Source of the DNA: a phage
Sequence record: PX880103.1
Strand: one strand, 5' to 3'
Length of the DNA: 64,000 nt
Shown piece after piece: positions 13,010 to 64,000 of the stretch; position 1 is the stretch's first letter; each line of letters opens with the position of its first letter. Below the pieces are notes generated by a model. The model saw only the letters and a list, made by a program, of their open reading frames with translations, was not told the origin of the DNA and ran no database searches. Position numbers and translations under genes: made by a program.

Positions 13010-13211
13010 TTTTCACCTTTTTATTGATATGTCTTTTTCTATAGACAACTTTTTCTCGAGTTTCAAATTTATTCTTAGCAGTCATAGCTCGAGCCCATAA
13101 TACAGCCACTTCTTTCGCCTGTAAGTTTAATTCACGAGCAATTTCAATGAATGACTTTCCAGACTCATGAAGAGTAAACACCACAACCTCAGTTCTCATA
13201 ATCAATCTCAT
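12996..13211 (-). CDS. hypothetical small protein with putative helix-turn-helix (T4 24.3 position)
   Basis: 71-aa ORF; SGKSFIEIARELNLQAKEV resembles an HTH. Confidence 0.55.
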   Translation of the reverse strand: MRLIMRTEVVVFTLHESGKSFIEIARELNLQAKEVAVLWARAMTAKNKFETREKVVYRKRHINKKVKNGTV

Positions 13212-13280
13212 GTTATCGAGTTGGTGCCATTATATACATCATTTTCTGATTGTGTTTTGCGTGCTTTCAAAATGAAGAAA

Positions 13281-13294
13281 GGGGCCGAAGCCCC
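13281..13294 (-). terminator. terminator hairpin downstream of hoc
   Basis: GGGGCCGAAGCCCC; minus-strand RNA has a UUCG loop then a U-rich tract. Confidence 0.6.
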
Positions 13295-13300
13295 TTACGA

Positions 13301-15007
13301 TTATGGATAGGTATAGATCATACCAGTTTCTAAAGCAGTTTTGTGAATGATGTATCCATTACGCGATTCTTGGACATCAACTTCTGGATAGTCTTTCATC
13401 ATTTTCTGAAGAGTGTAACGATGCAGGTAGTATTTACTATCTGGATCTTCAGTTTTCCAATCTTTACCTTCTTCAGTCATTTTTTGGATTTCATCCATAA
13501 CCCACCAACCGCACCAGATGTAAGCTGAAGTACGATGTGGAAGAGGATGAACATAAGGTAATTCACCTTCTGGTTCCGGAGCAACTTTATCAGTTACCTG
13601 GACTTGACCTTCTGCTGTAATAGTTTTGCTATCATAGTCAACTGCAGTAACGACGGCAGTCACTTCAATAGTTTGACTTCCAACAGATGAAGTATCAACG
13701 GTATATACATTAGTTGATCCTTCTACTGGAGAAGAATCTTTCTTCCATGAATATTCAATTTGCGCTTCTTCTGGAGCATCAGTGACATTAGCAGTAAATG
13801 TAGCCGAAGCATCTTGTTGAACGTTAATAGAAGGAGGAGTCAATGTAACCTGTGGATTCATTGTCTTCTTATTAACCGTTAATGATACTTCATTAGAAGT
13901 AACTGTTTTTGCGTCATAATCCGTTGCTGTTACTTGGGCTACGCATTTAATTTTTTTAACTCCAACTGCAGTAGGAGTATAGTTAAATGTAGCGGAAGTT
14001 GCTTCACTAATTTGTGAATCATCTACATACCACTGATACGTAGCAGATGCTCCATCAGGTTGAGAAGCTAAAGCGGCGGTAAATTCAACAGCTGTTCCAA
14101 TTACTCCGGCACCAGGATTAGCAGGAGTTACAGCTAGGGTAGTCGTTTGTGTTTTCTTGTTAACAGTCAAAGATACTTCATTCGAAGTAACTTCCTTTTC
14201 ATTGTAATTTTCTGCAGTTACTTGAGCTACGCATTTAATTATTTTTACTCCACTTGTAGTTGGAGTGTAATTGAACGTAGCATTAGTTTCTCCAATAACT
14301 TGAGAACCGTCAACATACCATTTATATGTAGCAGATGCTCCAACGGGTTGAGAAGCTAAGGCAGCAGTAAATTGAACTGGGGTTCCGATTACTCCCGCTG
14401 GAGGACTATCAGGAGTTACTGCCAAAGTAGTTGTCTGCTCCTTTTTATTAACAGTCAGTGATACTTCATTCGAAGTAACGCTTAGTGCATCATAATCTGT
14501 CGCAGTTACTTGAGCCACACACTTAATTCTTTTTACGCCGCTTTCGGCAGGAGTGTAATTGAATGTAGCAGAAGTTGCTTCGCCCACAGGAGAATCATCT
14601 ACATACCATTGATAAGTAGCGTTTGCGCCCGATGGCTGCGAAGCTAAAGCGGCTGTAAATTGAACAGCTGTTCCAATTACTCCAGCGTCAGGGCTATTAG
14701 GAGTTACAGCTAAGGTGGTCGTTTGTGTCTTATTTTGAACTGTGATAGTTGTAGTAGCTTCTGCTGTTTCAGCTTCAGCTTCTGGAACTGTATTTGTTGC
14801 AACTACTTTAATAGTCTTTTGACCGGCAGGCCCCTTTAATACATAATTAAAAGTTGCTTCAGCTCCATCTTGTGGAACATTATCTACGCTCCAAGCATAT
14901 GTAATAGTTCCACCTTCAGTTTGACCACTGGGTGCAGCAGTAAACTGCTTGGTTTCATCAATAACCCCTGTCGGTGTTTTAGGAGTTATATCAACTGTAA
15001 AAGTCAT
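13301..15007 (-). CDS. hoc: Hoc outer capsid decoration protein, expanded to five Ig-like modules
   Basis: 568 aa; N- and C-termini match my recollection of T4 Hoc (376 aa); three ~96-aa near-identical tandem Ig-like repeats plus two diverged ones. Confidence 0.9.
   Translation of the reverse strand: MTFTVDITPKTPTGVIDETKQFTAAPSGQTEGGTITYAWSVDNVPQDGAEATFNYVLKGPAGQKTIKVVATNTVPEAEAETAEATTTITVQNKTQTTTLAVTPNSPDAGVIGTAVQFTAALASQPSGANATYQWYVDDSPVGEATSATFNYTPAESGVKRIKCVAQVTATDYDALSVTSNEVSLTVNKKEQTTTLAVTPDSPPAGVIGTPVQFTAALASQPVGASATYKWYVDGSQVIGETNATFNYTPTTSGVKIIKCVAQVTAENYNEKEVTSNEVSLTVNKKTQTTTLAVTPANPGAGVIGTAVEFTAALASQPDGASATYQWYVDDSQISEATSATFNYTPTAVGVKKIKCVAQVTATDYDAKTVTSNEVSLTVNKKTMNPQVTLTPPSINVQQDASATFTANVTDAPEEAQIEYSWKKDSSPVEGSTNVYTVDTSSVGSQTIEVTAVVTAVDYDSKTITAEGQVQVTDKVAPEPEGELPYVHPLPHRTSAYIWCGWWVMDEIQKMTEEGKDWKTEDPDSKYYLHRYTLQKMMKDYPEVDVQESRNGYIIHKTALETGMIYTYP
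13858..14722. repeat. three diverged tandem ~288-bp repeats encoding Ig-like modules within hoc
   Basis: Protein repeats 2-4 are ~80-90% identical; the DNA copies are clearly related but diverged. Confidence 0.75.
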
Positions 15008-26754: not shown

Positions 26755-26784
26755 ATTATAACACAACATAAGGAACTTGTAAAC
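26755..26784 (-). promoter_or_regulatory. early-type promoter (-35 GTTTAC, 18-nt spacer, -10 TATAAT) for the alt.-3-position ORF
   Basis: Minus strand reads GTTTAC ... TATAAT, then GAGGAA RBS and ATG. Confidence 0.55.
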
Positions 26785-28841
26785 TACATTTTGAACTTTT
26801 TAGACATTCCGTTGATGTTAACCAAAGAAGCTAAGATTTGAGAAACTTCGTTTTCCTCTTCTTTTGATTCTTCTACAAGGAATTGATTAAATCCAGCCAT
26901 TGGACGAACTTCACCAGTTTCCATTAAATGGTCGCCATCATATACTGATTCTTCTAATTGTTCAGAAGGAGGAACGATTGTACCTTCGATTAGATACTTG
27001 TTATAAGCAGTTTCTTTCATAAAGTACGTACTTACTTTATTAATCTTCAGTAAAATTCCACGCGGTAGAATAACTTCAGCTTCTGATGGAAATCCTGATA
27101 AATGACCTGGAACGATAACTTTGATTCGCTCAGCTCCTTTAATTACCATACCCACTCTAGTTTCAGCATCTTCATTAGCGTATGTAGAATGACTACCCAT
27201 ATGCATCAAATCTTCTGCATCAACGGAACCTTCTCCTTCACCAGAAAATACTGCACCGGAATCATCTAGAGCCATATAGTTTTTACCATGCTCGCCGAAG
27301 ATATTTGGTTTAAGTGATGTCGATACGAAGTTCTTGAAATAGAACATTTTGTTTTCAATGTTATGACGCAAAGTTTTAAAGGTAACTTCTTGTCCACGGT
27401 AAAGTGTAGTTCCTGGAGGAAGAACTGATCCTTTGGCAAAGGCAGAATCCAACGTCTCGATGTGCTTAATAGCTCGTTCCATGTATTCTTCACGAGTAGA
27501 ATCTGGTTTACCCAAAAGGAACGAGTTCATTTCAACATATGAATCTGCACAATAATCTTCAATTACATCAGATTCAGCTTGAGTTAATCCTTTTGGAGTT
27601 ACTTCAGTACTTGCGTATTCATATGCCTGGGCAGCAGATTCATTAATCAATTTATAAATGCCATTCATGACGAATTGAATAATAGCTGTCTTTTCATCTG
27701 GCGTGGCTTTAGAACCTTTAACTAAATCATTAATAATTTTCTTAATAACATCAAAGCTATTAGAAATATTAATGTCAGCAAGATCGCTTAAAATTTTATC
27801 AGTTTTATAATCAAAGAATTCTTTATTCTTTAAATATTCTTGAGAACCTTGATATGTTATATCACTCTGCAACTTGATAGATGGATCACGTAAACGCGCA
27901 TGGGCCAATGCGATATGATTTCGGAAGTTTTCTAGTTCATAATCGCTAGATTTAAAACGAGAAGCACTCCTCATACCACCAATAGCTCCTTTGCTGAAGT
28001 TTGAACCAATCTGGATAACGCCAGAGTTCATTGGACCTTCTGCTTTATATACCGGAACTTTAGATTCAAACTCTTGATATTTCTTGGCAGCGAAGCTATC
28101 ACCCTGAAGTGAAGCATCGACAGTAGAATATTGAGCTTGTGCTGCTAATCGACGACTAATTTTAGTTTTCTGAATAACAGCTTGATCAGTGCGCTTATCA
28201 TTTTCTAAAGCAATAGAAGCAGCAACAGCGACAGCTTTAGGAACAGCATCACCTGTTTTAACATCTACATAAACATCACCGACCTTTGATTCAACTTTTG
28301 TGAATAACTCAGTTGAAATAGGAGGTACACCTGGAATGTCTTCTAAATTGGCATTTTTACGGTAAACCATAATATATGCATATTTCTTATCATAATCCCA
28401 GATTTCCTTTAAAAGAACATATCGACCTGCTCCTTTAGTACGTACTAAACGGTCAGCAATAACTTGCATTTGACGAGCTGCGCCATTTGTTTTACTTTTT
28501 AGCACACGGAACAAACACGCGTCAATTTTATACTGCTTCATTGTTTGAAGAGCAGTATCAAAAACAGCATTAATGACGCCAATTGGATTTCCACCCAAGT
28601 TTTTAAGCTTAACTAGTGATAATTTCTCGTTGACACCTATCATTACGATATGCATCATTTTATCGCCTGGCTTAACGTTTTTATTTGTATCACCACCAGA
28701 GGTGTATGTACAAAATCTAAATCCAGGAAGCACGCTTTCTTCACCGGCTTGAATAGCAAAAATTTGAGGTATTTTATGCTTAGGATTTAAGTTAACAACC
28801 GGCGCCGAAGCGCCGTCAAATAATTCTGTAATAAGTTCCAT
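26784..28841 (-). CDS. Alt-like ADP-ribosyltransferase, paralog A
   Basis: 685 aa; N-terminal MELITELFD; ART triad context YRGQ, FVSTSL, EAEVILPRG. Confidence 0.85.
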   Translation of the reverse strand: MELITELFDGASAPVVNLNPKHKIPQIFAIQAGEESVLPGFRFCTYTSGGDTNKNVKPGDKMMHIVMIGVNEKLSLVKLKNLGGNPIGVINAVFDTALQTMKQYKIDACLFRVLKSKTNGAARQMQVIADRLVRTKGAGRYVLLKEIWDYDKKYAYIMVYRKNANLEDIPGVPPISTELFTKVESKVGDVYVDVKTGDAVPKAVAVAASIALENDKRTDQAVIQKTKISRRLAAQAQYSTVDASLQGDSFAAKKYQEFESKVPVYKAEGPMNSGVIQIGSNFSKGAIGGMRSASRFKSSDYELENFRNHIALAHARLRDPSIKLQSDITYQGSQEYLKNKEFFDYKTDKILSDLADINISNSFDVIKKIINDLVKGSKATPDEKTAIIQFVMNGIYKLINESAAQAYEYASTEVTPKGLTQAESDVIEDYCADSYVEMNSFLLGKPDSTREEYMERAIKHIETLDSAFAKGSVLPPGTTLYRGQEVTFKTLRHNIENKMFYFKNFVSTSLKPNIFGEHGKNYMALDDSGAVFSGEGEGSVDAEDLMHMGSHSTYANEDAETRVGMVIKGAERIKVIVPGHLSGFPSEAEVILPRGILLKINKVSTYFMKETAYNKYLIEGTIVPPSEQLEESVYDGDHLMETGEVRPMAGFNQFLVEESKEEENEVSQILASLVNINGMSKKFKM

Positions 28842-28844
28842 GAT

Positions 28845-30941
28845 TTATCCTTGAACGAACTTGTAAGGCATGTTTGTAATATCTATGCAAGACGCAATAA
28901 TTCCAAGAGATGATTCTACTTTCTGTTTAACATTTGATGAAACAAATGATGCAAAGTCAACTCTGTCTTCTATTTCAATATCACCTGTCGTTGTAACTAC
29001 TTCGCCGGTTTCCATTAGACGGTCACCGTCATAAATTACCGATTCGGTGAGTTCTTCCGTGGTCATAACTTCAGCTTGAATGAGTTTTGTATTATTAGAC
29101 GTGGTTCCGTCATTATTAGAAGCATCAGTTATTTTATTAACTTTGACCATCAATCCGCGCGGTAGAATAACTTCAGCTTCTGTTGCTATTCCGAGACTTC
29201 CTGGATATACAACATTAACTTTATGAGCTCCATCAATTGCCCATCCTATTTGAACTTTAACGTATTCAGGATTTTCTTTATACGCTCTTATTTCGTTTGG
29301 ATTAATAGTTATTCCTTCTTCATTTTTATCAACTGTTAATTCATTGCGAGCTTCTGGTTCTAAAAGACCAATACCAGCATGTGTAATTCCAAAACGTCCA
29401 AAAATGATAGGAGTTAAAGAAGTAGATACAAAATTTCTGAAATAGAACACTTTATTTTTAACTAGTGCTTCGTATATAGGAGCAGTCATACTTTGAGCAC
29501 GATAAACTGTAATGCCTTCCGGTATGCGGTCACCATTTTCAAAAGCTGAATCTAAATTATTTATAGCAGATTCAATTTCTTTTTCACTCATTACATCATA
29601 TCGTTCTGGATTGTAACGACCTAAAAGAAGATTATTAATGTCTGTATATCCTGAGCCACAATATTCTCTAATGCCGCGCTTTTGTGATGGAGTATATTTA
29701 GAACCATCACGAGCAATAGTAATATCAATCATTGGACCAGCACCAATTCCAGAAAAACTATAAATCATTCGTTTGAGGAATTTAGTTTTTGCTGCATTCC
29801 AGGCATTTTTAGTTATTTCTTCCCAGACTTCATCTGACTGACCTTTACGAGTTTTATTATGTTTATCAAGCCAATTATCTTTATATTCTTCAAAGAATTG
29901 ATTAACAGCTGCTGCGTATTTCTCTAAACATTTTATTGAAGTAGTTGGTTCATTTTTAATCGCATTAAGAATTACATCTTTAATTTTTTCAGAAACTTCA
30001 TTAACCTCACTTTTTGAAAAGAATTTATAATCATAGTGAAGTTCATCTGCAGTTCCTTCGGCAATAATTTTTGCTGCCTTAGTTTTAGAAGCTAATGAAT
30101 TAATTCCAAGCTTCATTTCTTCTGCTTCGGGAATTAAAGGAGCAGTAGCAGGTTTATTGAAATTAGCTGCGGTAGATTCATACTTCTGGAATAATTCACT
30201 TTCAAATCTAGAAGATTCCAATGACTGACTTTGTGCAATTGCTCTACGGGAAATTTTAACTTTAACGATTACAGCTTGGTCAGAACGTTTATCATTTTCT
30301 TGTGCAATAGATGCTGCAATTGCCTCATTTTTAGTTACTTGAGCTCCGGTATCTTTATTGATATAAACATCACCGACCTTCGATTCAACTTTAGTAAAGA
30401 GCTCGGTACTAATTTCCGGAACTCCTGGAATGTCTTCTAGTGATACATTTTTGCGATGTATAAGAATATATGCATACTTTTTATCGTAATCCCAGAGTTC
30501 CTTAAGAAGGACGTATCTACCACCTGAACGACTACGGATAAGTCTATCAGCAATAACTTGAATTTGTCGAGCTTGGCCAGCAGTTTTAGACTTAAGAATA
30601 CGGAGCATACAGGCATCAATTTTATACTGACGCATCGTTTGCATTGCAACAGTAAAAACTGAATTGATATAATTAATTGGGCTTGGACCAAGACCTTTTA
30701 ATTTAGCAATTGAACCTTTAGCAGTTAATGTAAAAGGAACAATATGCATCATTTTATCGCCCATTTTTAAATCGCGATTAGTATCACCTCCAGATGTATA
30801 GGTACATAAACGAAAGCCTGGTTGTTCAATTGCATCATCAACGTGAACTGAAAAAATTTGCGGTATTTTCTTCTTTGGATTTAAGTTTGTAATCGGAAGA
30901 GTAGTATCTTCGTCAAATAATTCTGTAATGAGTTCCATCAT
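28845..30941 (-). CDS. alt: Alt-like ADP-ribosyltransferase, paralog B (probable Alt ortholog)
   Basis: 698 aa; N-terminal MMELITELFD; YRAQ, FVSTSL, EAEVILPRG; late promoter upstream; adjacent to gene 30. Confidence 0.85.
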   Translation of the reverse strand: MMELITELFDEDTTLPITNLNPKKKIPQIFSVHVDDAIEQPGFRLCTYTSGGDTNRDLKMGDKMMHIVPFTLTAKGSIAKLKGLGPSPINYINSVFTVAMQTMRQYKIDACMLRILKSKTAGQARQIQVIADRLIRSRSGGRYVLLKELWDYDKKYAYILIHRKNVSLEDIPGVPEISTELFTKVESKVGDVYINKDTGAQVTKNEAIAASIAQENDKRSDQAVIVKVKISRRAIAQSQSLESSRFESELFQKYESTAANFNKPATAPLIPEAEEMKLGINSLASKTKAAKIIAEGTADELHYDYKFFSKSEVNEVSEKIKDVILNAIKNEPTTSIKCLEKYAAAVNQFFEEYKDNWLDKHNKTRKGQSDEVWEEITKNAWNAAKTKFLKRMIYSFSGIGAGPMIDITIARDGSKYTPSQKRGIREYCGSGYTDINNLLLGRYNPERYDVMSEKEIESAINNLDSAFENGDRIPEGITVYRAQSMTAPIYEALVKNKVFYFRNFVSTSLTPIIFGRFGITHAGIGLLEPEARNELTVDKNEEGITINPNEIRAYKENPEYVKVQIGWAIDGAHKVNVVYPGSLGIATEAEVILPRGLMVKVNKITDASNNDGTTSNNTKLIQAEVMTTEELTESVIYDGDRLMETGEVVTTTGDIEIEDRVDFASFVSSNVKQKVESSLGIIASCIDITNMPYKFVQG

Positions 30942-49969: not shown

Positions 49970-50197
49970 TTATTTTTGGATTAATCCCATATAAAATTTA
50001 GCATCTTCAGGATACATGCCATCACAATACTCATTGGTCATAAAACTAATAAGGTCTTCAAGAGGACCTTGAACTTCAATTTGAATACTAAAGAATTGGG
50101 TATCTTTAATGTAAGCCATACTCAAAGAAGGATAACGATTGCGGATAACTTCGTAAGTGTATTCAAAATCAACAATATCAATATTAACCTTAGCCAT
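49970..50197 (-). CDS. hypothetical small protein, paralog 1 ([13 protein letters not shown]...)
   Basis: Start moved to ATG 50197 with GAGGAAAA RBS (75 aa); the track's longer version would swallow its own promoter. Confidence 0.55.
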
Positions 50198-50224
50198 TTT
50201 ATTTTCCTCATGTAGTTGATAGGG

Positions 50225-50256
50225 CAATAGTATCACACTACTACCCTTCTGTAAAC
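50225..50256 (-). promoter_or_regulatory. early-type promoter candidate for small paralog 1
   Basis: GTTTAC -35 and TACTAT-like -10 upstream of ATG 50197. Confidence 0.4.
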
Positions 50257-50615
50257 TACTTTTTGAAAGTTTTTCGCAAAAGTTCAATGATTTCGTCTAC
50301 ATTGTTTTCATCTACAATGCAGTGAATTTTTGTTACGCCAGAAACTAGGTATTCGTCTTCTTCAGAAGTCGGTTCTTTATATTCACGAAAACAATGAAAT
50401 TCGTCTTCACAGACGTTAAAGTAAAAATGCTTTCCATTTGCGCATTCAATGTGTTTTATTACTCTAAATCCATCAACAAAGAAAGCTTCTTTAACTTCAA
50501 ACCATCCGCCATTTTCTTGAATAATTTTAACTATTGCTGAATTAGAACGTGGACGATAATTAATAAATGTATCAATAAGTCTTGGAACAAGTTCATACTT
50601 TTTACCGATATACAT
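50256..50615 (-). CDS. hypothetical protein
   Basis: 119-aa ORF between the two paralogs. Confidence 0.5.
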
Positions 50616-50662
50616 TTTCTTTTCCTCATTTTAATAGGGGCTTGATAGCCCCTTGATAATTA

Positions 50663-50887
50663 CTATTCAATAAATCCTGTGTAAAATTCTACATCTTCAG
50701 CATCCATACCGTCGCAGTATTCATTAACCATAAACTGTTTAAGACGATTTAAAGGACCTTCAATAACAACTGAAACATTACAATTAGGATCATTTAGTGC
50801 GCTTATGATACTAAGTTCAGGATAACGATTACGAATAATTTCTTCAATATATTCAAAATCAACAACATCAATATCAATTTTAGCCAT
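50663..50887 (-). CDS. hypothetical small protein, paralog 2 ([13 protein letters not shown]...)
   Basis: Start at ATG 50887 with GAGGAAAA RBS (74 aa); about 50% identical to the 49970-50197 product. Confidence 0.55.
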
Positions 50888-50926
50888 ATTATTTTCCTCT
50901 TTAATTATCAGCAGTATTGCCGATAG

Positions 50927-50960
50927 TTGTATAGTACCATAAAGCTTTATGCTTGTAAAC
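50927..50960 (-). promoter_or_regulatory. early-type promoter candidate for small paralog 2
   Basis: GTTTACAAGC ... TACTATAC on minus strand upstream of ATG 50887. Confidence 0.4.
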
Positions 50961-50989
50961 AACTTTGTGAAAAATTTTTAAAATAAAAA

Positions 50990-51008
50990 GGGGACCTCTA
51001 GGGTCCCC
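50990..51008 (-). terminator. intrinsic terminator downstream of gene 32
   Basis: GGGGACC-TCTA-GGGTCCCC then a long U-rich run on the minus-strand RNA. Confidence 0.7.
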
Positions 51009-54262: not shown

Positions 54263-54270
54263 TATAAATA
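54263..54270 (+). promoter_or_regulatory. late promoter (TATAAATA) for gene 34
   Basis: Exact TATAAATA about 35 nt upstream of the gene 34 ATG. Confidence 0.6.
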
Positions 54271-54304: not shown

Positions 54305-57300
54305 ATGGCCGAGATTAAAAGAAAGTTCAGAGCAGAAGATGGTCTGGACGCAGGTGGTGATAAAATAATCAACGTAGCTTTAGCTGATCGTACCGTAGGA
54401 ACTGACGGTGTTAACGTTGATTACTTAATTCAAGAAAACACAGTTCAACAATATGATCCAACTCGTGGATATTTAAAAGATTTTGTAATCATTTATGATA
54501 ACCGTCTTTGGGCTGCTATAAATGATATTCCAAAACCAGCAGGAGCTTTTAATAGCGGACGCTGGAGAGCATTACGTACCGATGCTAACTGGATTACGGT
54601 TTCATCTGGTTCATATCAATTGAAATCCGGTGAAGCAATTTCGGTTAATACTGCAGCTGGAAATGACATCACGTTTACTTTACCGTCTTCTCCAATTGAT
54701 GGTGATACTATCGTTCTCCAAGATATTGGAGGAAAACCTGGAGTTAACCAAGTTTTAATTGTAGCTTCAGTGCAAAGTATTGTAAACTTTAGAGGTGAAC
54801 AAGTACGTTCAGTACTAATGACTCATCCAAAGTCACAGCTAGTTTTATTTTTTAGTAATCGTCTGTGGCAAATGTATGTTGCTGATTATAGTAGAGAAGC
54901 TATAGTTGTAACACCAGCGAATACCTATCAAGCACAATCCAACGATTTTATCGTACGTAGATTTACTTCCGCTGCACCAATTAATGTTAAACTTCCAAGA
55001 TTTGCTAATCATGGCGATATTATTAATTTCGTCGATTTAGATAAACTAAATCCGCTTTATCATACAATTGTTACTACATACGATGAAACGACTTCAGTAC
55101 AAGAAGTTGGAACTCATTCCATTGAAGGCCGTACAACAATTGACGGTTTCTTGATGTTTGATGATAATGAGAAATTGTGGAGATTGTTTGACGGGGATAG
55201 TAAAGCGCGTTTACGCATTATAACGACTAATTCTAATATTCGTCCAAATGAAGAAGTTATGGTATTTGGTGCGAATAACGGAACAGCTCAGACAATTGAA
55301 CTTCAGCTTCCAACTAATATTTCTGTTGGTGATACTGTTAAAATTTCCATGAATTACATGAGAAAAGGACAAACAGTTAAAATCAAAGCTGCCGGTGAAG
55401 ATAAAATTGCTTCTTCAGTTCAATTGCTGCAATTCCCAAAACGCTCAGAATATCCGCCTGAAGCTGAATGGGTTACAGTCCAAGAATTAGTTTTTAATGG
55501 TGAAACTAATTATGTTCCAGTTTTACAACTTGCTTATATAGAAGATTCTGACGGAAAATACTGGGTTGTACAGCAAAACGTTCCAACTGTAGAAAGAGTT
55601 GATTCTTTAAATGATTCTACCAGAGCAAGATTAGGCGTGATTGCTTTAGCTACACAAGCCCAAGCTAATGTCGATTTAGAAAATTCTCCACAAAAAGAAT
55701 TAGCAATTACTCCAGAAACGTTAGCTAATCGTACTGCTACAGAAACTCGCAGAGGTATTGCAAGAATAGCAACTACTGCTCAAGTGAATCAGAACACCAC
55801 ATTCTCTTTTGCTGATGATATTATCATCACTCCTAAAAAGCTGAATGAAAGAACTGCTACAGAAACTCGTAGAGGTGTCGCAGAAATTGCTACGCAACAG
55901 GAAACTAATGCAGGTACTGATGATACTACAATCATCACTCCTAAAAAGCTTCAAGCTCGTCAGGGTTCTGAATCATTATCTGGTATTGTAACTTTTGTAT
56001 CTACTGCAGGTGCTACTCCAGCTTCTAGCCGTGAATTAAATGGTACGAATGTTTATAATAAAAACACTAATAATTTAGTTGTTTCACCTAAAGCTTTAGA
56101 TCAGTATAAAGCTACTCCAACACAGCAAGGTGCAGTAATTTTAGCAGTTGAAAGTGAAGTAATTGCTGGACAAAGTCAGGAAGGATGGGCAAATGCTGTT
56201 GTAACGCCAGAAACGTTACATAAAAAGACATCAACTGATGGAAGAATTGGTTTAATTGAAATTGCTACGCAAAGTGAAGTTAATACAGGAACTGATTATA
56301 CTCGTGCAGTCACTCCTAAAACTTTAAATGGCCGTAAAGCAACTGAAAGTTTAAGTGGTATAGCTGAAATTGCTACGCAAGTTGAATTCGACGCAGGCGT
56401 CGACGATACTCGTATCTCTACACCATTAAAAATTAAAACTAGATTTAATAGTACTAATCGTACTTCTGTTGTTGCTCTATCTGGATTAGTTGAATCAGGA
56501 ACTCTCTGGGACCATTATACCCTCAATATTCTTGAAGCAAATGAGACACAACGTGGTACACTTCGTGTAGCCACGCAAGTTGAAGCTGCTGCAGGAACAT
56601 TAGATAATGTTTTAATAACTCCTAAAAAGCTTTTAGGTACTAAATCTACCGAATCGCAAGAAGGTGTTATTAAAGTTGCAACTCAGTCTGAAACTGTGAC
56701 TGGAACGTCAGCAAATACTGCTGTATCTCCAAAAAATTTAAAATGGATTGTGCAGAGTGAACCTACTTGGGCAGCTACTACTGCGATAAGAGGTTTTGTT
56801 AAAACTTCATCTGGTTCAATTACATTCGTTGGTAATGATACAGTCGGTTCTACCCAAGATTTAGAACTGTATGAGAAAAATAGCTATGCGGTATCACCAT
56901 ATGAATTAAACCGTGTATTATCAAATTATCTGCCGTTAAAAGCAAAGGCTGTAGATAGTAATTTATTGGATGGTTTAGATTCATCTCAGTTCATTCGTAG
57001 GGATATTGCACAGACGGTTAATGGTTCACTAACCTTAACCCAACAAACGAATCTGAGTGCCCCTCTTGTATCATCTAGTACTGCTACGTTTGGTGGTTCA
57101 GTTTCGGCAAATAGTACATTAACTATTTCTAATACTGGAACGGCAACTCGTTTGATTTTTGAGAAAGGACCTCAAACTGGAACTAACCCAGCACAGACGA
57201 TGACTATCAGAGTTTGGGGAAATCAGTTTGGCGGCGGTTCAGATACAACACGTTCTACTGTATTTGAAGTTGGTGATGAAACATCTAATCACTTTTATTC

Positions 57301-58174
57301 TCAACGTAATAAAGCTGGTAATATTACGTTTAGCATTAATGGTACTGTGATGCCAATAAATGTTAACGCTTCAGGCACGTTGAATGCGAATGGCGTTGCA
57401 ACATTCGGTCGTTCAGTTACAGCCAATGGTGAATTCATTAGCAAGTCTGCAAATGCTTTCAGAGCAATTAGTGGTGATTATGGATTCTTTATCAGGAATG
57501 ATGGCGGTAGCACATATTTTATGCTTACTGCATCTGGTGATCAGACTGGCGGATTTAATGGATTACGTCCTTTGGCTATTAATAATGCATCTGGCCAAGT
57601 AACGATTGGTGAAAGCTTAATCATTGCCAAAGGTGCTACTATAAATTCAGGCGGTTTGACTGTTAACTCGAGAATTCGTTCTCAGGGTACTAAAACATCT
57701 GATTTATATACCCGTGCGCCAACATCTGATACTGTAGGATTCTGGTCAATCGATATTAACGATTCAGCCACTTATAACCAGTTCCCGGGTTATTTTAAAA
57801 TGGTTGAAAAAACTAATGAAGTGACTGGGCTTCCATACTTAGAACGTGGCGAAGAAGTTAAATCTCCTGGTACATTGACTCAGTTTGGTAATACACTTGA
57901 TTCGCTTTACCAAGATTGGATTACTTATCCAACGACTCCAGAAGCACGTACCACTCGCTGGACACGTACATGGCAGAAAACCAAAAACTCTTGGTCAAGT
58001 TTTGTTCAGGTATTTGATGGAGGTAACCCTCCTCAACCATCTGATATCGGTGCTTTACCATCTGATAATGCTATAATGGGGAATCTTACTATTCGTGATT
58101 TCTTGCGAATTGGTAATGTTCGCATTGTTCCTGACCCAGTGAATAAATCTGTTAAATTTGAATGGGTTGAATAA
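54305..58174 (+). CDS. 34: long tail fibre proximal subunit gp34
   Basis: 1289 aa as in T4 gp34; internal ~40-aa repeats; late promoter upstream. Confidence 0.95.
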   Translation: MAEIKRKFRAEDGLDAGGDKIINVALADRTVGTDGVNVDYLIQENTVQQYDPTRGYLKDFVIIYDNRLWAAINDIPKPAGAFNSGRWRALRTDANWITVSSGSYQLKSGEAISVNTAAGNDITFTLPSSPIDGDTIVLQDIGGKPGVNQVLIVASVQSIVNFRGEQVRSVLMTHPKSQLVLFFSNRLWQMYVADYSREAIVVTPANTYQAQSNDFIVRRFTSAAPINVKLPRFANHGDIINFVDLDKLNPLYHTIVTTYDETTSVQEVGTHSIEGRTTIDGFLMFDDNEKLWRLFDGDSKARLRIITTNSNIRPNEEVMVFGANNGTAQTIELQLPTNISVGDTVKISMNYMRKGQTVKIKAAGEDKIASSVQLLQFPKRSEYPPEAEWVTVQELVFNGETNYVPVLQLAYIEDSDGKYWVVQQNVPTVERVDSLNDSTRARLGVIALATQAQANVDLENSPQKELAITPETLANRTATETRRGIARIATTAQVNQNTTFSFADDIIITPKKLNERTATETRRGVAEIATQQETNAGTDDTTIITPKKLQARQGSESLSGIVTFVSTAGATPASSRELNGTNVYNKNTNNLVVSPKALDQYKATPTQQGAVILAVESEVIAGQSQEGWANAVVTPETLHKKTSTDGRIGLIEIATQSEVNTGTDYTRAVTPKTLNGRKATESLSGIAEIATQVEFDAGVDDTRISTPLKIKTRFNSTNRTSVVALSGLVESGTLWDHYTLNILEANETQRGTLRVATQVEAAAGTLDNVLITPKKLLGTKSTESQEGVIKVATQSETVTGTSANTAVSPKNLKWIVQSEPTWAATTAIRGFVKTSSGSITFVGNDTVGSTQDLELYEKNSYAVSPYELNRVLSNYLPLKAKAVDSNLLDGLDSSQFIRRDIAQTVNGSLTLTQQTNLSAPLVSSSTATFGGSVSANSTLTISNTGTATRLIFEKGPQTGTNPAQTMTIRVWGNQFGGGSDTTRSTVFEVGDETSNHFYSQRNKAGNITFSINGTVMPINVNASGTLNANGVATFGRSVTANGEFISKSANAFRAISGDYGFFIRNDGGSTYFMLTASGDQTGGFNGLRPLAINNASGQVTIGESLIIAKGATINSGGLTVNSRIRSQGTKTSDLYTRAPTSDTVGFWSIDINDSATYNQFPGYFKMVEKTNEVTGLPYLERGEEVKSPGTLTQFGNTLDSLYQDWITYPTTPEARTTRWTRTWQKTKNSWSSFVQVFDGGNPPQPSDIGALPSDNAIMGNLTIRDFLRIGNVRIVPDPVNKSVKFEWVE

Positions 58175-58182
58175 GAGGTATT

Positions 58183-59301
58183 ATGGAAAAATTTATGGCA
58201 GAGTTTGGACAAGGATATGTCCAAACGCCATTTTTATCGGAAAGTAATTCAGTAAGATATAAAATAAGTATAGCGGGTTCTTGCCCGCTTTCTACTGCAA
58301 AAGGACCATACGTTAAATTTCAGGATAATCCTGTCGGAAGTCAAACATTTAGCGCAGGACTTCATTTAAGAGTTTTTGATCCTTCCACCGGAGCATTAGT
58401 TGACAGTAAGTCATATGCTTTTTCGACTTCAAATGATACTACATCAGCTGCTTTTGTTAGTTTCATGAATTCTTTGACGAATAATAGACTTGTTGCTATA
58501 TTAACTAACGGAAAGGTTAATTTTCCTCCTGAAGTAGTATCTTGGCTAAGAGCTGCAGGAACGGCTGCTTTTCCATCTGATTCTATATTGTCAAGATTCG
58601 ACGTATCATATGCTGCTTTTTACACTTCTTCTAAAAGAGCTATTGCATTAGAGCATGTTAAACTAAGTAATAGAAAAAGCACAGATGATTATCAAACTAT
58701 TTTAGACGTTGTATTTGACAGTTTAGAAGATGTTGGAGCTACCGGGTTTCCAAGAAGAACGTATGAAAACGTTAAGCAATTTATGTCAGCTGTCGGTGGA
58801 ACTAATAACGAAATTGCACGTTTTCCAACTTCAGCTGCTATAAGCAAACTCTCTGATTATAATTTAGTTCCTGGTGATGTTCTTTATCTTAAAGCACAGT
58901 TATATGCTGATGCTGATTTACTTGCACTTGGAACTACAAATATATCCATCCGTTTTTATAATGCGTCGAATGGATATATTTCCTCGACACAAGCTGAGTT
59001 TACTGGACAAGCCGGGTCTTGGGAATTAAAAGAAGATTATGTAGTTGTTCCAGAAAACGCGGTGGGATTTACGATATACGCACAAAGAACTGCACAAGCT
59101 GGTCAAGGCGGAATGAGGAATTTAAGTTTTTCTGAAGTGTCAAGAAATGGTAGTATTTCGAAACCCGCTGAATTTGGCGTCAACGGTATTCGAGTTAATT
59201 ATGTCTGTGAATCCGCTTCACCTCCGGATATAATGGTACTTCCTACACAAGCATCGTCTAAAACTGGTAAAGTGTTTGGGCAAGAATTTAGAGAAGTATA
59301 A
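58183..59301 (+). CDS. 35: long tail fibre hinge protein gp35
   Basis: 372 aa as in T4 gp35. Confidence 0.92.
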   Translation: MEKFMAEFGQGYVQTPFLSESNSVRYKISIAGSCPLSTAKGPYVKFQDNPVGSQTFSAGLHLRVFDPSTGALVDSKSYAFSTSNDTTSAAFVSFMNSLTNNRLVAILTNGKVNFPPEVVSWLRAAGTAAFPSDSILSRFDVSYAAFYTSSKRAIALEHVKLSNRKSTDDYQTILDVVFDSLEDVGATGFPRRTYENVKQFMSAVGGTNNEIARFPTSAAISKLSDYNLVPGDVLYLKAQLYADADLLALGTTNISIRFYNASNGYISSTQAEFTGQAGSWELKEDYVVVPENAVGFTIYAQRTAQAGQGGMRNLSFSEVSRNGSISKPAEFGVNGIRVNYVCESASPPDIMVLPTQASSKTGKVFGQEFREV

Positions 59302-59306
59302 ATTGA

Positions 59307-59324
59307 GGGAGCCTTCGGGTTCCC
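59307..59324 (+). terminator. terminator hairpin after gene 35
   Basis: GGGAGCC-TTCG-GGTTCCC followed by TTTTTC. Confidence 0.6.
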
Positions 59325-59332
59325 TTTTTCTT

Positions 59333-59340
59333 TATAAATA
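59333..59340 (+). promoter_or_regulatory. late promoter (TATAAATA) for gene 36
   Basis: Exact TATAAATA after the gene 35 terminator, 24 nt upstream of gene 36. Confidence 0.6.
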
Positions 59341-59363
59341 CTATTAAAATAAAGGGGCATACA

Positions 59364-60029
59364 ATGGCTGATTTAAAAGTAGGTTCAACAACTGGAGGCT
59401 CTGTCATTTGGCATCAAGGAAATTTTCCATTGAATCCGGCCGGTGACGATGTACTCTATAAATCATATAAAATATATTCAGAATATAATAAACCGCAAGC
59501 AGCTGATAACGATTTCGTTTCTAAAGCTAATGGCGGTACTTATGCATCAAAAGTAACATTTAACGGCGGCGTCCAAGTCCCGTATGCTGCAAACATCATG
59601 AGCCCATGTGGTATTTATGGAGGTAACGGTGATGCAGCTACTTTTGATACAGCAAATATTGATATTGTTTCGTGGTATGGTATAGGATTTAAATCATCGT
59701 ACGGTTCAGTAGGCCGAACTGTTGTAATTAATACACGTAATGGTGATATTAATACAAAAGGTGTTGTGTCGGCAGTTGGCCAAGTAAGAAGTAATGCAGC
59801 TGCTCCTGTAGCAGTGAATGACCTTACTAGAAAGGACTACGTTGATGGAGCAATAAATACTGTTACAGCAAATGCAAACTCCAGGGTGCTACGGTCAGGT
59901 GATACCATGACAGGTAACTTAACAGCGCCAAACTTTTTCTCACAGAATCCTGCGTCTCAACCTTCACATGTTCCACGATTTGACCAAATCGTAATTAAGG
60001 ATTCTGTTCAAGATTTCGGCTATTATTAA
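59364..60029 (+). CDS. 36: long tail fibre distal connector gp36
   Basis: 221 aa as in T4 gp36; late promoter upstream. Confidence 0.92.
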   Translation: MADLKVGSTTGGSVIWHQGNFPLNPAGDDVLYKSYKIYSEYNKPQAADNDFVSKANGGTYASKVTFNGGVQVPYAANIMSPCGIYGGNGDAATFDTANIDIVSWYGIGFKSSYGSVGRTVVINTRNGDINTKGVVSAVGQVRSNAAAPVAVNDLTRKDYVDGAINTVTANANSRVLRSGDTMTGNLTAPNFFSQNPASQPSHVPRFDQIVIKDSVQDFGYY

Positions 60030-60037
60030 GAGGACTT

Positions 60038-63000
60038 ATGGCTACTTTAAAACAAATACAATTTAAAAGAAGCAAAACAGCAGGTGCACGTCCTGCTGCT
60101 TCAGTATTAGCCGAAGGTGAATTGGCTATAAACTTAAAAGATAGAACACTTTTTACTAAAAATGATACAGGTCAAATTATCGACCTTGGCTTCGCTAAAG
60201 GTGGACAAGTCGATGGTGATGTGACTATTAATGGTAAATTAACATTAAATGGTGCGTATGTTCAGACGCTGGCTGGTATTAATACCACGGGTGGTATTAA
60301 TGCTGGAGCCGCTATAAGTGCAACAACTTATTATGCTCGGTCTGGTTCTTATTATGCTCGTGCTCCAGATGCCGATACGAATACACATGTTTGGTTTGAA
60401 AATAGCAATGGTATAGAACGTGGCGTGATTTGGGCTATTCCGAACACTTCAGACCTTGGCCAGGTCAAAATTCGGGCGAAAACCACAGGTGGTGTTTTCG
60501 CCGGCGAGTACAGTTTCCGCTCTGATGGCCGATTTGATGTTCCTGTAGCAGTTAAAATCGGCGGAGCAGCGATGCTAACCAAAGACGGCAACATTACATC
60601 AGGTTCATTGTTTGGTGGTAACCTTAACAACTATTTGACTTCTATTAAAAATGACATTGTTGCTGGTGATAATAAGAAAGTAAGTAAAACCGGTGACACT
60701 ATGTCCGGTAACTTGACTATTAACGCTAACTTAAAAGTCGAAAACTCTAATGGAACGTATGTTGATTTAGGTTCAGAGAACTCTAGTAACTATAGCAGAT
60801 TAACTCTTGCTCGTAAAGTTGGAGATGGCGCTGGTGTAGCAATGCTTAAAGTTACTCCTGAAGGAAACGTGCAATTTGGTTATCAACCTACAGTTGCTAC
60901 TCCATCTCCTACCAAGTATATTCTAATTAAACCTAACGGTCTTGAAGTAGAAGGTGATTTAGTTTTTAAGCAAACTTATCGTGGTATTGAAGAAGCATTT
61001 GATATTACTGATCAGACTATTGACCTTAATAGCCTTATTATTAGAGGATCAGATTTAGGTACTCGTAAGCTGTATAAATGCAGATCATCTGGCGGTGGTT
61101 CTAATATATTGAACAAACCTACATCTGACGGCAACTTTACTCTTGAAGTTCTGTCTTTACGCAAGGTTTCTGATAGCGATTGGTCATGTAAGCAGACCTT
61201 TACTACAAAGAACAATAATGTTGTAGGCGTATATGTTCGCTACGGACAAGGCGGCTCATGGACCGCATGGCAAGAAGTTGTATCTGGTGTTCAGCCAATT
61301 AAATTAGGTGGTACTGGAGCAACTTCTGTAGCTGCTGCCCGTAATAACCTTGGTGTTGGTGAAGGCCAAACTGTAACATTCGGTAATTTAGTTACCAATG
61401 ATTTAACTGCAAACAAACAAGTTAAAATCGGCGGAGTCGGAATAGCTGATGCATTAAGAATTTGGAATGCCGAATACGGTGCTATTTTCCGTCGTTCAGA
61501 AACAGCATTACATATTATCCCGACTCCTAAAGATGCTGGTGAAAATGGTGGAATAAGTAATCTCCGCCCATTAAGTATTGCTCTTAATAATGGTATGGTA
61601 CAAATGCGCCATTCTGTTACGTTAGGCGATGACGGCAGAGGTGGCAATATGATTACCGTAGACAATGATAATAAACTTGTTGCTGTTACTAGTCATAGCC
61701 GCATTTCTCCTAATTACCGTATGCAGTTAGGTCAGGCTGCGTACATTGATGCAGAATGTACTGATGCTGTTCGCCCGGCTGGAGCTGGTTCTTTTGCTTC
61801 ACAGAATAATGAAAACGTCCGTGCTCCGTTCTATATGAATATTGATAGAGCTGATACTGGTACATATGTTCCGATTTTGAAACAACGTTATGTTCAAGGT
61901 AACGGCTGCTATTCATTAGGGACTTTAATTAATAATGGTAATTTCCGAGTTCATTACCATGGAGGCGGAGATAACGGTTCTACAGGTCCACAGACTGCTG
62001 ATTTTGGATGGGAATTTATTAAAAACGGTGATTTTATTTCACCTCGCGATTTAATAGCAGGTAAAGTCAGATTTGATAGAACTGGTAATATTACTGGAGG
62101 TTCAGGAAACTTTGCCAATTTAAATACCACGTTAAACCGTAAAGTTAATGTTGGCGGTTGGGCTGGTAGTTCTGATGGTGGATGGTACAAATTTGCTACG
62201 GTAACAATTCCTCAAGGTACTGGCACAGTAACTTTTAAAATTTCCGGTGGAGCTGGTTTTAATTTTAAAAGCTATAACCAAGCTTCTATTGCTGAGATAG
62301 TTCTTCGCACAGGTAATAATCCTAAAGGCATAAACGCTGTACTATGGAACAGGTCAGACCTGAGTTTTAATCAGATAGCTACTATGAATACATCTGGTGA
62401 TACTTATGATGTATACGTGTTCTGTGACGGTTATACAAATGCATTAGTGGTTGAATATTCTTGTAGTGAAAACTCTTCGGTAACCGTAGTCGGTCTTAAC
62501 GGAGGCATTCAGCCAGTTGTTGATGCATTGCCTGAGGGACATGTTGTAGGTAAAACAGTTCGTCTGTTAAATAATATTGGCGGAACTTTCGCAGCTGGCG
62601 AATCTGACGTTGTTACTCGTGGTGAATACGTTGCTGATAATCAAAAAGGCATGCGTATTAAATCTAACGGTAATAATATCGGTTCTAATGCTGCTATACT
62701 TCGAAATGACGGCGGAAGTTTTTATATTTTAGCTACAGATAAAAATACAGCAGAAAAAGCCGATGCGGCTAATGGTGATTGGAACTCATTGCGTCCTTTT
62801 ACAATAAGCATGACTACCGGTGAAGTATCAATGAATAACGGCATAACTGTTCGTAACTATGCCACATTCTATAATGATATTGTTCTCAAAGATAATGGTT
62901 ATATTCACTTTAATAAGTCTGGCGCTAATCCAAGAAGCATGAGTATATTCCATGCCGGAGATGCCACACGTGGTAACCGTATTGAAATTGCTGATGATTC

Positions 63001-63580
63001 AAGTTATTTGGTTTATTTCCAACGTTTACCGGGCGGCGCTAACCAGTGTACATTTAACTCTGCTGCTCTTTCGGGTATAACACAGACTAACTCTTTTGGT
63101 GTCAATACATCAAACGCACTTGGTGGAAATAGTATAACGTTTGGTGATAATGACACCGGTATTAAGCAAAATGGCGATGGATTATTAGACATATATGCGA
63201 ACAGCGCGCAAGTGTTCCGTTTCCAAAATGGTGATTTGTACTCATACAAAAATATAAATGCTCCAAACGTTTATATTCGTTCTGATATTCGTTTAAAATC
63301 CAACTTCAAACCTATCGAAAATGCACTTGATAAAGTTGAAAAACTTAACGGTGTCATTTACGATAAAGCTGAATACATCGGTGGAGAGGCAATTGAAACT
63401 GAAGCGGGTATTGTGGCTCAAACGTTACAAGACGTTTTACCAGAAGCTGTCCGTGAAACAGAAGACAGCAAGGGTAATAAAATACTCACTGTTTCTTCTC
63501 AAGCCCAGATTGCTCTTCTGGTTGAAGCTGTGAAAACACTTTCTTCTCGCGTAAAAGAACTCGAATCTAAACTTATGTAA
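60038..63580 (+). CDS. 37: long tail fibre distal subunit gp37 with C-terminal intramolecular chaperone-like domain
   Basis: 1180 aa; last ~99 aa (SDIRLKSNFKPIENALDKVEKLNGVIYDK...) resemble the self-cleaving chaperone of tailspikes/endosialidases. Confidence 0.88.
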   Translation: MATLKQIQFKRSKTAGARPAASVLAEGELAINLKDRTLFTKNDTGQIIDLGFAKGGQVDGDVTINGKLTLNGAYVQTLAGINTTGGINAGAAISATTYYARSGSYYARAPDADTNTHVWFENSNGIERGVIWAIPNTSDLGQVKIRAKTTGGVFAGEYSFRSDGRFDVPVAVKIGGAAMLTKDGNITSGSLFGGNLNNYLTSIKNDIVAGDNKKVSKTGDTMSGNLTINANLKVENSNGTYVDLGSENSSNYSRLTLARKVGDGAGVAMLKVTPEGNVQFGYQPTVATPSPTKYILIKPNGLEVEGDLVFKQTYRGIEEAFDITDQTIDLNSLIIRGSDLGTRKLYKCRSSGGGSNILNKPTSDGNFTLEVLSLRKVSDSDWSCKQTFTTKNNNVVGVYVRYGQGGSWTAWQEVVSGVQPIKLGGTGATSVAAARNNLGVGEGQTVTFGNLVTNDLTANKQVKIGGVGIADALRIWNAEYGAIFRRSETALHIIPTPKDAGENGGISNLRPLSIALNNGMVQMRHSVTLGDDGRGGNMITVDNDNKLVAVTSHSRISPNYRMQLGQAAYIDAECTDAVRPAGAGSFASQNNENVRAPFYMNIDRADTGTYVPILKQRYVQGNGCYSLGTLINNGNFRVHYHGGGDNGSTGPQTADFGWEFIKNGDFISPRDLIAGKVRFDRTGNITGGSGNFANLNTTLNRKVNVGGWAGSSDGGWYKFATVTIPQGTGTVTFKISGGAGFNFKSYNQASIAEIVLRTGNNPKGINAVLWNRSDLSFNQIATMNTSGDTYDVYVFCDGYTNALVVEYSCSENSSVTVVGLNGGIQPVVDALPEGHVVGKTVRLLNNIGGTFAAGESDVVTRGEYVADNQKGMRIKSNGNNIGSNAAILRNDGGSFYILATDKNTAEKADAANGDWNSLRPFTISMTTGEVSMNNGITVRNYATFYNDIVLKDNGYIHFNKSGANPRSMSIFHAGDATRGNRIEIADDSSYLVYFQRLPGGANQCTFNSAALSGITQTNSFGVNTSNALGGNSITFGDNDTGIKQNGDGLLDIYANSAQVFRFQNGDLYSYKNINAPNVYIRSDIRLKSNFKPIENALDKVEKLNGVIYDKAEYIGGEAIETEAGIVAQTLQDVLPEAVRETEDSKGNKILTVSSQAQIALLVEAVKTLSSRVKELESKLM

Positions 63581-63581
63581 A

Positions 63582-63599
63582 AGAGGGCTTCGGCCCTCT
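63582..63599 (+). terminator. hairpin between genes 37 and 38
   Basis: AGAGGGC-TTCG-GCCCTCT after the gene 37 stop; could be a terminator/attenuator or an RNA stability element. Confidence 0.45.
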
Positions 63600-63610
63600 A
63601 AGGATTTTTA

Positions 63611-64000
63611 ATGGCAATTGTAGGTGTTCCTGGCTGGATTGGTGAATCTGCCGTGAATGAAACTGGACAACGTTGGATGGATGCTGCGATGAGAGCAGTT
63701 CGTGTTTCAGTTCCTGGTTGGATGAGCTCAATGGCTGGACAATCTAAAGAAATTATTCACACGCTTGGAGCAGACCATAACTTCAATGGTCAATGGTTCC
63801 GAGATAGGTGTTTTGAGGCAGGTAGTACACCTATAGTGTTTAATATTACAGGTGATTTAGTATCATATTCTAAAGATGTTCCTTTATTTTTCATGTATGG
63901 AGATACACCGAATGAATATGTTCAGTTGAATATACACGGCGTAACGATGTATGGACGTGGCGGTAATGGCGGTAGCAATAGTCCTGGCTCAGCTGGAGGT
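63611..64000 (+). CDS. 38: gp38 receptor-recognising adhesin (5' part, runs off the window)
   Basis: [15 protein letters not shown]... conserved gp38 N-terminus, then Gly-rich [16 protein letters not shown] typical of T2-type adhesins. Confidence 0.85.

Follow-up and report, generated by a model that had tools for sequence, protein, structure and literature searches.

The end of the 64,000-nucleotide stretch of phage DNA that was analysed (record PX880103.1, hereafter the window) very probably carries the distal tail-fibre genes of a Tequatrovirus with a T2/T6-style host-recognition tip, in which gp37 would be cleaved at its C-terminus and gp38 docked on the resulting end.

The distal tail-fibre locus

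The genes and the promoter motif at this end of the window are as follows.

59333..59340, + strand: T4-type late promoter motif TATAAATA, exact match, upstream of gene 36
59364..60029, + strand: gene 36, distal hinge connector, 221 aa (Pfam Phage_T4_gp36, E 9.6e-49)
60038..63580 (stop codon included), + strand: gene 37, long tail fibre distal subunit precursor, 1180 aa (open reading frame)

The reading frame of gene 37 gives the length of 1180 aa that the original prediction had stated, and its product matches PHROG 1699, 'long tail fiber protein distal subunit', with an E value of 2.9e-184, while NCBIfam holds no model for either gp37 or gp38. The window contains 19 exact copies of the late promoter motif, where 8.5 would be expected, and a second one of these lies at 54263, 5′ of gene 34. 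The copy at 59333..59340 is likely to mark the start of a late g36-g37-g38 transcript, a promoter role that we assume from what is known of T4.

The gp37 tip and its C-terminal chaperone domain

Two features make up the end of gp37.

63077..63280, + strand: mature gp37 tip, aa 1014-1081, ending ...NAPNVYIR, the predicted gp38 docking surface (T2 identity, S16 alignment)
63281..63577, + strand: C-terminal intramolecular chaperone domain of the Peptidase_S74 family, aa 1082-1180 (PF13884, E 3.4e-15)

A chaperone domain of ~99 aa had been proposed for the C-terminus of gp37, and the Pfam search for Peptidase_S74 bore this out, as PF13884 matched aa 1082-1139 over the whole of the model (positions 1-58/58) with 56.5 bits (cut-off 22), and there are exactly 99 residues from S1082 to the end of the protein. 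The domain opens with S1082-D-I-R-L-K1087, in which the Ser and Lys(i+5) pair is present. SDIRLK aligns with SDRRIK of phage S16, whose gp37 is cut at DLNVS^SDRRIKK (PMC7917993), and has the same spacing as Ser1264/Lys1269 in the mechanism described for T5 pb1 (PMC4690869). Cleavage is predicted at R1081|S1082, with S1082 as the putative nucleophile and K1087 as the putative base. This 99-aa stretch also matches the very end of proteins from over 25 PHROG tail-fibre families. In T5 pb1 and the K1F endosialidase, Peptidase_S74 is likewise the C-terminal domain of a trimeric fibre, and gp37, as read from its sequence, can be likened to them in its putative Ser nucleophile, Lys i+5 and predicted post-folding release, but their upstream fibre domains are unrelated to those of gp37 and their matured end itself binds or catalyses and does not serve to dock an adhesin made as a second protein.

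Over its last 167 aa, chaperone domain included, gp37 is 95% identical to T2 gp37, as is the tip itself (aa 1014-1081 against T2 gp37 1175-1242, 95%). A passage of PMC3157838, citing Drexler et al. 1986, states that T2 and T6 gp37 are cleaved at the C-terminus and, because of this near-identity to T2, autoproteolytic release of the chaperone is predicted for gp37 of the window. The tip also aligns with the gp37 tip of S16, for which a docking role has been described (PMC7917993). In the S16 gp37 tip-gp38 complex (PDB 6F45, Dunne et al. 2018) the S74 chaperone follows the tip, as it does here, although similarity to the S16 proteins is remote (E 4.7e-12 and 2.5e-25), the chaperone of S16 has 113 aa rather than 99, and its tip finishes with DLNVS where that of the window has NVYIR.

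Alternatively, the S74 domain could be a degenerate, uncleaved remnant, in which case the C-terminal domain would stay on the fibre, and gp38 would either attach at some other site or fail to bind. This would be compatible with the poor fold prediction (AlphaFold2 on gp37 aa 1014-1180, run on the single sequence only, gave a mean pLDDT of 47, too low to confirm the helical coiled coil and mixed alpha-beta fold of the family) and with the fact that cleavage is deduced from sequence. It is nevertheless very unlikely given the full-length Pfam match far over the cut-off, the intact Ser/Lys pair, the likeness of the last 167 aa to a T2 protein that the passage cited above reports as cleaved, and the 98% conservation of the attachment domain in the gp38 with which gp37 is paired. 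A cleaved gp37 end is the preferred reading.

The gene 37-38 junction

The sequence that joins the two genes contains the following.

63582..63599, + strand: intercistronic hairpin AGAGGGC-UUCG-GCCCUCU, 7-bp stem and UUCG tetraloop (fold energy -13.4 kcal/mol)
63600-63604, + strand: ribosome-binding site AAGGA, after the hairpin and before gene 38

Gene 38 is encoded directly 3′ of the gene for a gp37 bearing a predicted cleavable chaperone end, at a distance of 31 bases from the gene 37 stop codon to the gene 38 start. The ATG of gene 38 is at 63611 rather than 63612. The hairpin was also picked up by a scan for terminator-like sequences, and the same hairpin is annotated in the T2 record X04442 as a stem-loop or potential terminator.

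The gp38 adhesin

From 63611, 130 codons of gene 38 fall in the window before the reading frame is cut by the window end, and these cover three features.

63611..63736, + strand: gp38 N-terminal attachment domain, aa 1-42, with W9, W22 and W37 (Pfam Gp38_N, PF21721, E 1.6e-18)
63752..63955, + strand: gp38 beta-helix domain, aa 48-115, ~70 aa (Pfam GP38 profile, PP01 near-identity)
63956..64000, + strand: first 15 residues of the first glycine-rich motif of gp38, aa 116-130 (translation)

The assignment of gene 38 to the adhesin type was confirmed by matches to Pfam Gp38_N and GP38 (PF05268, E 1.8e-31, with aa 47-130 on profile positions 1-87/218) and to PDB entries 6F45 and 9V85. A conserved N-terminus followed by a glycine-rich motif had been described, and both are present, but the motif begins only at aa 116 and a beta-helix domain lies between them. 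The adhesin architecture comprises five glycine-rich motifs and four hypervariable segments (a PGII sandwich), of which the window shows the first 15 residues of motif 1, and the gp38 proteins of phages FL12 and NIC06P2, which are the same as that of the window up to the cut, carry it in full (259 and 260 aa). In FL12, T2 and NIC06P2, a gp38 of 259-262 aa is followed by the holin gene t. Viral contigs contained no match to an exact 54-base pattern taken from the window end, and an exact-protein look-up with gp37 returned none either.

At the positions that align with W9, W22 and W37, S16 gp38 has Trp residues described as acting in docking (PMC7917993), and it shows the same succession of attachment domain with three conserved Trp, beta-helix and Gly-rich motif. 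Over aa 1-47, gp38 is 98% identical to T2 gp38, a conservation that points to purifying selection acting at the interface, and the pairing of T2-like gp38 aa 1-47 with a T2-like gp37 end fits the lock-and-key subtypes of PMC3157838. The beta-helix domain shows only 44% identity to its T2 counterpart and belongs to the PP01/M1/RB3 kind, being near-identical to PP01 gp38 (PDB 9V85, PMC12892980) at ~70/73 positions over aa 48-120. The PP01 protein, whose incompatibility with T2 gp37 has been reported, has another N-terminal attachment subtype and departs from the window sequence right after GRGGNG; its receptor is OmpC. The description of the tip as T2-type is therefore apt for the docking interface (the gp37 C-terminus and gp38 aa 1-47) and not for the beta-helix domain.

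The name of gene 38 and its place in the gene order, both as in T4, are the only points that might suggest an assembly chaperone of the T4 type, with gp37 bearing the receptor-binding tip as in T4. T4 gp37 has its own receptor-binding tip at its end and no S74 domain, and T4 gp38 is an unrelated chaperone (T4 RefSeq note). The original prediction had named this alternative as one to be checked; the 130 visible residues gave no blastp match to T4 gp38 at E<=10, and Pfam places the fragment in adhesin families, which together refute a T4-type identity for gp38. Moreover, T4 gp37 does not align to the C-terminal third of gp37 in the window, where no homology to the T4 tip was found (T4 aligns to aa 1-162 and 445-699 only), leaving this reading with almost no likelihood.

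With gp38 taken as an adhesin, the working of the tip can be proposed from homologues. In this model, gp37 would be made as a precursor whose last 99 residues, of the Peptidase_S74 kind, nucleate the folding of the fibre end as a trimer. After the correct trimer has formed, Lys1087-activated Ser1082 would cut the R1081-S1082 bond, and the departure of the chaperone would bare the flat ...NVYIR tip. One copy of gp38 would then dock on this tip through aa 1-42 with Trp9, Trp22 and Trp37, and its glycine-rich sandwich domain, mostly past the window, would offer loops to an outer-membrane protein receptor. There was no contradicting observation in the data on this best explanation.

The gp37 shaft and the T4-like backbone

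Two further features lie upstream of the gp37 tip.

60200..61400, + strand: gp37 shaft segment, ~aa 55-455 (DNA common to FL12, NIC06P2, GRNsp7 and TH58)
62597..62806, + strand: Gp34_trimer-like domain, gp37 aa 854-923 (Pfam PF21446, E 4.2e-9; 37.4 bits, cut-off 27)

The N-terminus of gp37, MATLKQIQFKRSKTAGARPAASVLAEGELAINLKDRT, is near-identical to that of T2 and T4 gp37. The shaft DNA at 60200..61400 has no counterpart in T2 or T4 at the DNA level. Residues 97-185 resemble a gp34 segment of PDB 9f4a, and the shaft shows a weak resemblance to an R-pyocin fibre knob and to the motif GGTGA..ARNNLG (E 0.011); Pfam and PDB searches with aa 290-470 returned weak matches only, to this R-pyocin fibre. 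T4 shares the gp37 N-terminus, a shaft block at aa 445-699 (73% identity) and the position of the locus, and no DNA alignment to T4 was found after 62125. T2 (LC348380; X04442) shares the gp37 C-terminal 167 aa, gp38 aa 1-47 and the intercistronic hairpin, as well as a block at gp37 aa 700-938 that is ~95-98% identical and contains the Gp34_trimer-like domain, but its gp37 has 1341 aa and the window holds no T2-like DNA at 60200-61400 and 62800-63050. The closest relative, FL12 (PP400786), aligns over the whole 3963-bp region at 93.2% nucleotide identity, with a gp37 of 1179 aa (92% amino acid identity), a gp38 that is 100% identical over aa 1-130 and, as far as the window reaches, the same gene order (g36-g37-g38-t in FL12), but identity to FL12 is only 78-86% within 61400-62200. 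As judged from these alignments, gp37 is a patchwork of segments common to different phages.

A mosaic of a T4-like remainder and an unlike host-range module had been predicted, and alignment to T4 in 1-kb bins agreed with it: all bins of positions 1-60000 align except 27001-28000, most at 95-99% identity, while 803/4000 positions align in 60001-64000, with a sharp drop at ~60200. The tip module does interrupt an otherwise T4-like backbone.

The same sharp drop, together with the T4-type gp38 carried by slur14 and other close relatives of the backbone, might indicate that the module is a foreign host-range cassette recently imported into a T4 backbone, so that the phage of the window, and not T4, is the recombinant. 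We consider this unlikely. Adhesin-type gp38 is the commoner form (764 phage records, against 297 with T4-type gp38), and T4 is the exception, in line with a published account in which the adhesin form predominates and the end of g37 and g38 of T4 are the parts that were replaced, by lambda-derived sequence (PMC3157838). In addition, gp37 of the window is a multi-parent patchwork, not one imported block. The T4-type gp38 of slur14 on a near-identical backbone shows, however, that the two tip types swap between such backbones.

The receptor

OmpA is the best single guess for the receptor, a tentative one, given the OmpA dependence of FL12, the nearest relative (PMC12032242, Lutz et al. 2025). 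The guess is weakened by the difference between FL12 and NIC06P2 gp38, which are identical to ~aa 159 but differ past that point (only 76% identity after aa 131), and the OmpA specificity of FL12 lies in gp38 loops beyond the content of the window. The loops that confer specificity fall beyond base 64000, where the two closest relatives differ, so that the window does not reveal the receptor. Assignment from the visible part of gp38 was rejected as well, since the same beta-helix domain occurs in adhesins whose reported receptors are OmpC (PP01), OmpA (FL12) and Tsx (RB3 and relatives). There is a rather slim chance that the gp38 loops past the window have an untyped specificity, or that the gp37 shaft at 60200-61400 is a secondary binding site; if true, either would extend a well-mapped system by a small step.

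Implications

Fibres with a self-removing folding domain and a glycine-rich receptor-binding protein have been described since the 1980s. The tip arrangement found here is the standard, already known T2-like host-recognition end, and it raises no new question. Its value is one of annotation, in that this phage would recognise its host by a detachable gp38 adhesin and not by the gp37 tip. Host range would thus be set by a few gp38 loops and could be re-engineered by loop swaps, a step already taken with T2, T6, PP01 and S16.

Organization of the tail-fibre locus

Gene 37, encoding the distal subunit of the long tail fibre (gp37), lies downstream of genes 34, 35 and 36 in a locus with the following features.

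Features of the tail-fibre locus
54263, match to a T4 late-promoter motif, 5′ of gene 34
59333, match to the T4 late-promoter motif TATAAATA, just 5′ of gene 36
59364..60029, + strand, gene 36 (Pfam Phage_T4_gp36), directly preceding gene 37
60038..63580, + strand, gene 37, a single open-reading frame of 1180 codons
63578-63580, + strand, gene 37 stop codon
63582-63599, + strand, hairpin with a 7-bp stem and UUCG loop (fold energy -13.4 kcal/mol), 3′ of the gene 37 stop

By sequence comparison, gp37 and its T2 and T4 counterparts have nearly identical N-termini over the first 37 residues. The hairpin at 63582-63599, whose equivalent T2 record X04442 labels a stem-loop, is followed by an AAGGA ribosome-binding site and an ATG at 63611, from which gene 38 stays open for 130 codons to the end of the window. 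The original prediction, a gp37 of 1180 aa that ends in a ~99-aa domain and is followed by an adhesin-type gene 38, was accurate except in where it placed the Gly-rich motif. Two GC-rich UUCG-tetraloop hairpins occupy intercistronic gaps on the + strand, one after gene 37 and the other after gene 35 (59305..59326), immediately 5′ of the late-promoter motif at 59333. In 58000-64000, 16 terminator-like sites were counted, against 4.0 expected.

The C-terminus of gp37

As predicted, gp37 ends in a chaperone-family domain: Pfam Peptidase_S74 ('chaperone of endosialidase') covers residues 1082-1139 over all 58 model positions, with a score of 56.5 bits where the curated cut-off is 22 bits. The match begins at S1082, within NVYIR-SDIRLKSNF, and S1082 is the first of exactly 99 C-terminal residues. 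In a phmmer search of PDB sequences, gp37 1025-1178 aligned with the fragment of gp37 in 6F45, the tip complex of Salmonella phage S16, with SDRRIK of S16 opposite SDIRLK. S16 gp37 reportedly undergoes autocleavage between the two serines of DLNVS^SDRRIKK, releasing a 113-residue chaperone whose departure uncovers the gp38 docking surface (PMC7917993). In T5 pb1, the scissile bond is Thr1263-Ser1264, Lys1269 activates Ser1264, and the S1264A mutation stops processing (PMC4690869); the Ser...Lys spacing is equal in the window gp37 (S1082, K1087). The last 167 residues are 95% identical to T2 gp37 1175-1341, and the T2/T6 gp37 C-terminus is reportedly cleaved (Trojet et al. 2011, citing Drexler, Riede and Henning 1986; PMC3157838). 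Alone, the 99-residue piece matches the extreme C-termini in over 25 different tail-fibre families of PHROG, as expected for a portable S74 module. An AlphaFold2 model of the gp37 end from single-sequence input had a pLDDT of 47, too low to confirm the expected fold.

Gene 38 is of the adhesin type

Within the window, gene 38 is of the predicted adhesin type and not of the T4 type, since its aa 1-42 match Pfam Gp38_N (E 1.6e-18) and its aa 47-130 match GP38 ('phage tail fibre adhesin') at profile positions 1-87 of 218 (E 1.8e-31), while no similarity to T4 gp38 was detectable in the 130-aa fragment. S16 gp38 (6F45) has tryptophans opposite W9, W22 and W37, and aa 48-120 are almost identical to the PP01 gp38 receptor-binding domain (9V85). 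The conserved N-terminus and the Gly-rich motif expected to follow it are both present, but a beta-helix domain lies between them and the motif starts only at residue 116. In three relatives, FL12, T2 and NIC06P2, gp38 is a 259-262-residue adhesin followed by holin gene t.

Closest relatives and receptor

Escherichia phage FL12 is the best overall match, with 93.2% nucleotide identity over all 3963 bases, 92% identity in gp37 and 100% identity over gp38 aa 1-130. With a characterised relative 92-100% identical, this textbook arrangement is a known one; the observation holds, and its interpretation is supported. Over the gene 38 fragment, NIC06P2 is closer than FL12 (99.2% nucleotide identity), and RB3 and its relatives match at 86-87%. 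FL12 requires OmpA (PMC12032242); among phages with a matching beta-helix domain, PP01 reportedly uses OmpC (PMC12892980) and RB3 and relatives Tsx (PMC3157838). The gp38 proteins of NIC06P2 and FL12 are identical to about residue 159, but only 76% identical past residue 131, where their hypervariable segments differ. Because one beta-helix domain serves OmpC and Tsx users and these segments differ, the receptor cannot be inferred within the window; by analogy, OmpA would be the most likely single guess, and no more than that.

The open-reading frames, domain memberships, catalytic motif, conserved interface and mosaic boundary are present in the DNA itself. By analogy with T2, S16, T5 pb1 and K1F, the 99-residue domain would help the gp37 trimer to fold, after which Ser1082 and Lys1087 would cut R1081|S1082 and the chaperone would depart. 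A gp38 monomer would then use its N-terminal domain, which bears the tryptophans, to dock on the NVYIR tip, and its polyglycine sandwich loops would bind an outer-membrane protein.

Patchwork structure of gp37 and its pairing with gp38

Judged from its alignments, gp37 is itself a patchwork.

Segments of gene 37 and the start of gene 38
60038 to ~60200, common to all phages compared
60200-61400, without counterpart in T2 and T4; common to FL12, NIC06P2, GRNsp7 and TH58
61800-62125, 94% identity to T4
62200-62800, 95-98% identity to T2
62800-63050, unlike T2
63050-63750, 98% identity to T2; spans the fibre tip, chaperone domain and gp38 attachment domain
beyond ~63750, T2 match lost

Because the last T2-like block stops at ~63750, gp38 shares 98% identity with T2 in aa 1-47 and only 44% in aa 48-115. 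The gp37 end and the gp38 N-terminus are thus a conserved pair, both of the T2 subtype, which agrees with the 'lock-and-key' subtypes that Trojet et al. describe (PMC3157838), and also with a report that PP01 gp38 and T2 gp37 are incompatible (PMC12892980).

Two gp37 segments resemble gp34: aa 97-185 (60326..60592) match a gp34 chain (PDB 9f4a, E 1.4e-9) and aa 854-923 (62597..62806) match Pfam Gp34_trimer, which suggests domains common to, or shuffled between, the distal (gp37) and proximal (gp34) fibre halves. In the shaft absent from T2 and T4, aa 290-470 (~60905..61447) received no Pfam assignment, have weak similarity to an R-type pyocin tail fibre (6CL5, E 0.011) and bear the motif LGGTGATSVAAARNNLG, which aligned with similar motifs in the tail-fibre structures of a pyocin (6CL5) and a phage (7Z47); this region may be a knob-like insertion.

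A mosaic boundary with T4

The whole window was aligned to T4 positions 94000-162000 in 1-kb bins. All bins in 1-60000 aligned except 27001-28000, most at 95-99% identity, whereas in 60001-64000 just 803 of 4000 positions aligned, with none past ~62125. The break in T4-likeness near the window end is real, in keeping with the prediction of a host-range module unlike T4's in an otherwise T4-like stretch. Other dips to 70-89% identity, against a backbone of 95-99%, lie at 13001-15000, 29001-30000, 50001-51000 and 57001-58000, the last of them in distal gene 34. Midway through gene 36 (59600..59800), there is no blastn match to FL12, and identity is only 60% to T2 but 88% to T4; the tail-fibre mosaic therefore extends 5′ of gene 37, where its parentage differs.

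Bin 27001-28000, with no blastn match to T4, falls in a stretch with two tandem Alt-like ADP-ribosyltransferase genes at 26784..28841 (- strand, 685 aa) and 28845..30941 (- strand, 698 aa), both Pfam ADPrib_exo_Tox and 41% identical to each other. T4 instead has a single alt gene, accompanied by three short remnants (alt.-1, alt.-2 and alt.-3); the pair is a known variation, since other Tequatroviruses are annotated with two.

By tblastn, 764 phage records carry the window gp38 fragment against 297 with T4 gp38, which makes the adhesin type more common than T4's. Trojet et al. describe the T2/T6 form as predominant and the T4 g37 end and g38 as substituted by lambda-derived sequence (PMC3157838), and the T4 RefSeq record notes two unrelated 'gp38' proteins. 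Both types occur among phages whose backbone is close to that of the window; slur14 is 96% identical over 35000-58000, yet has a T4-type gp38. The tail-fibre tip locus is a known swap point.
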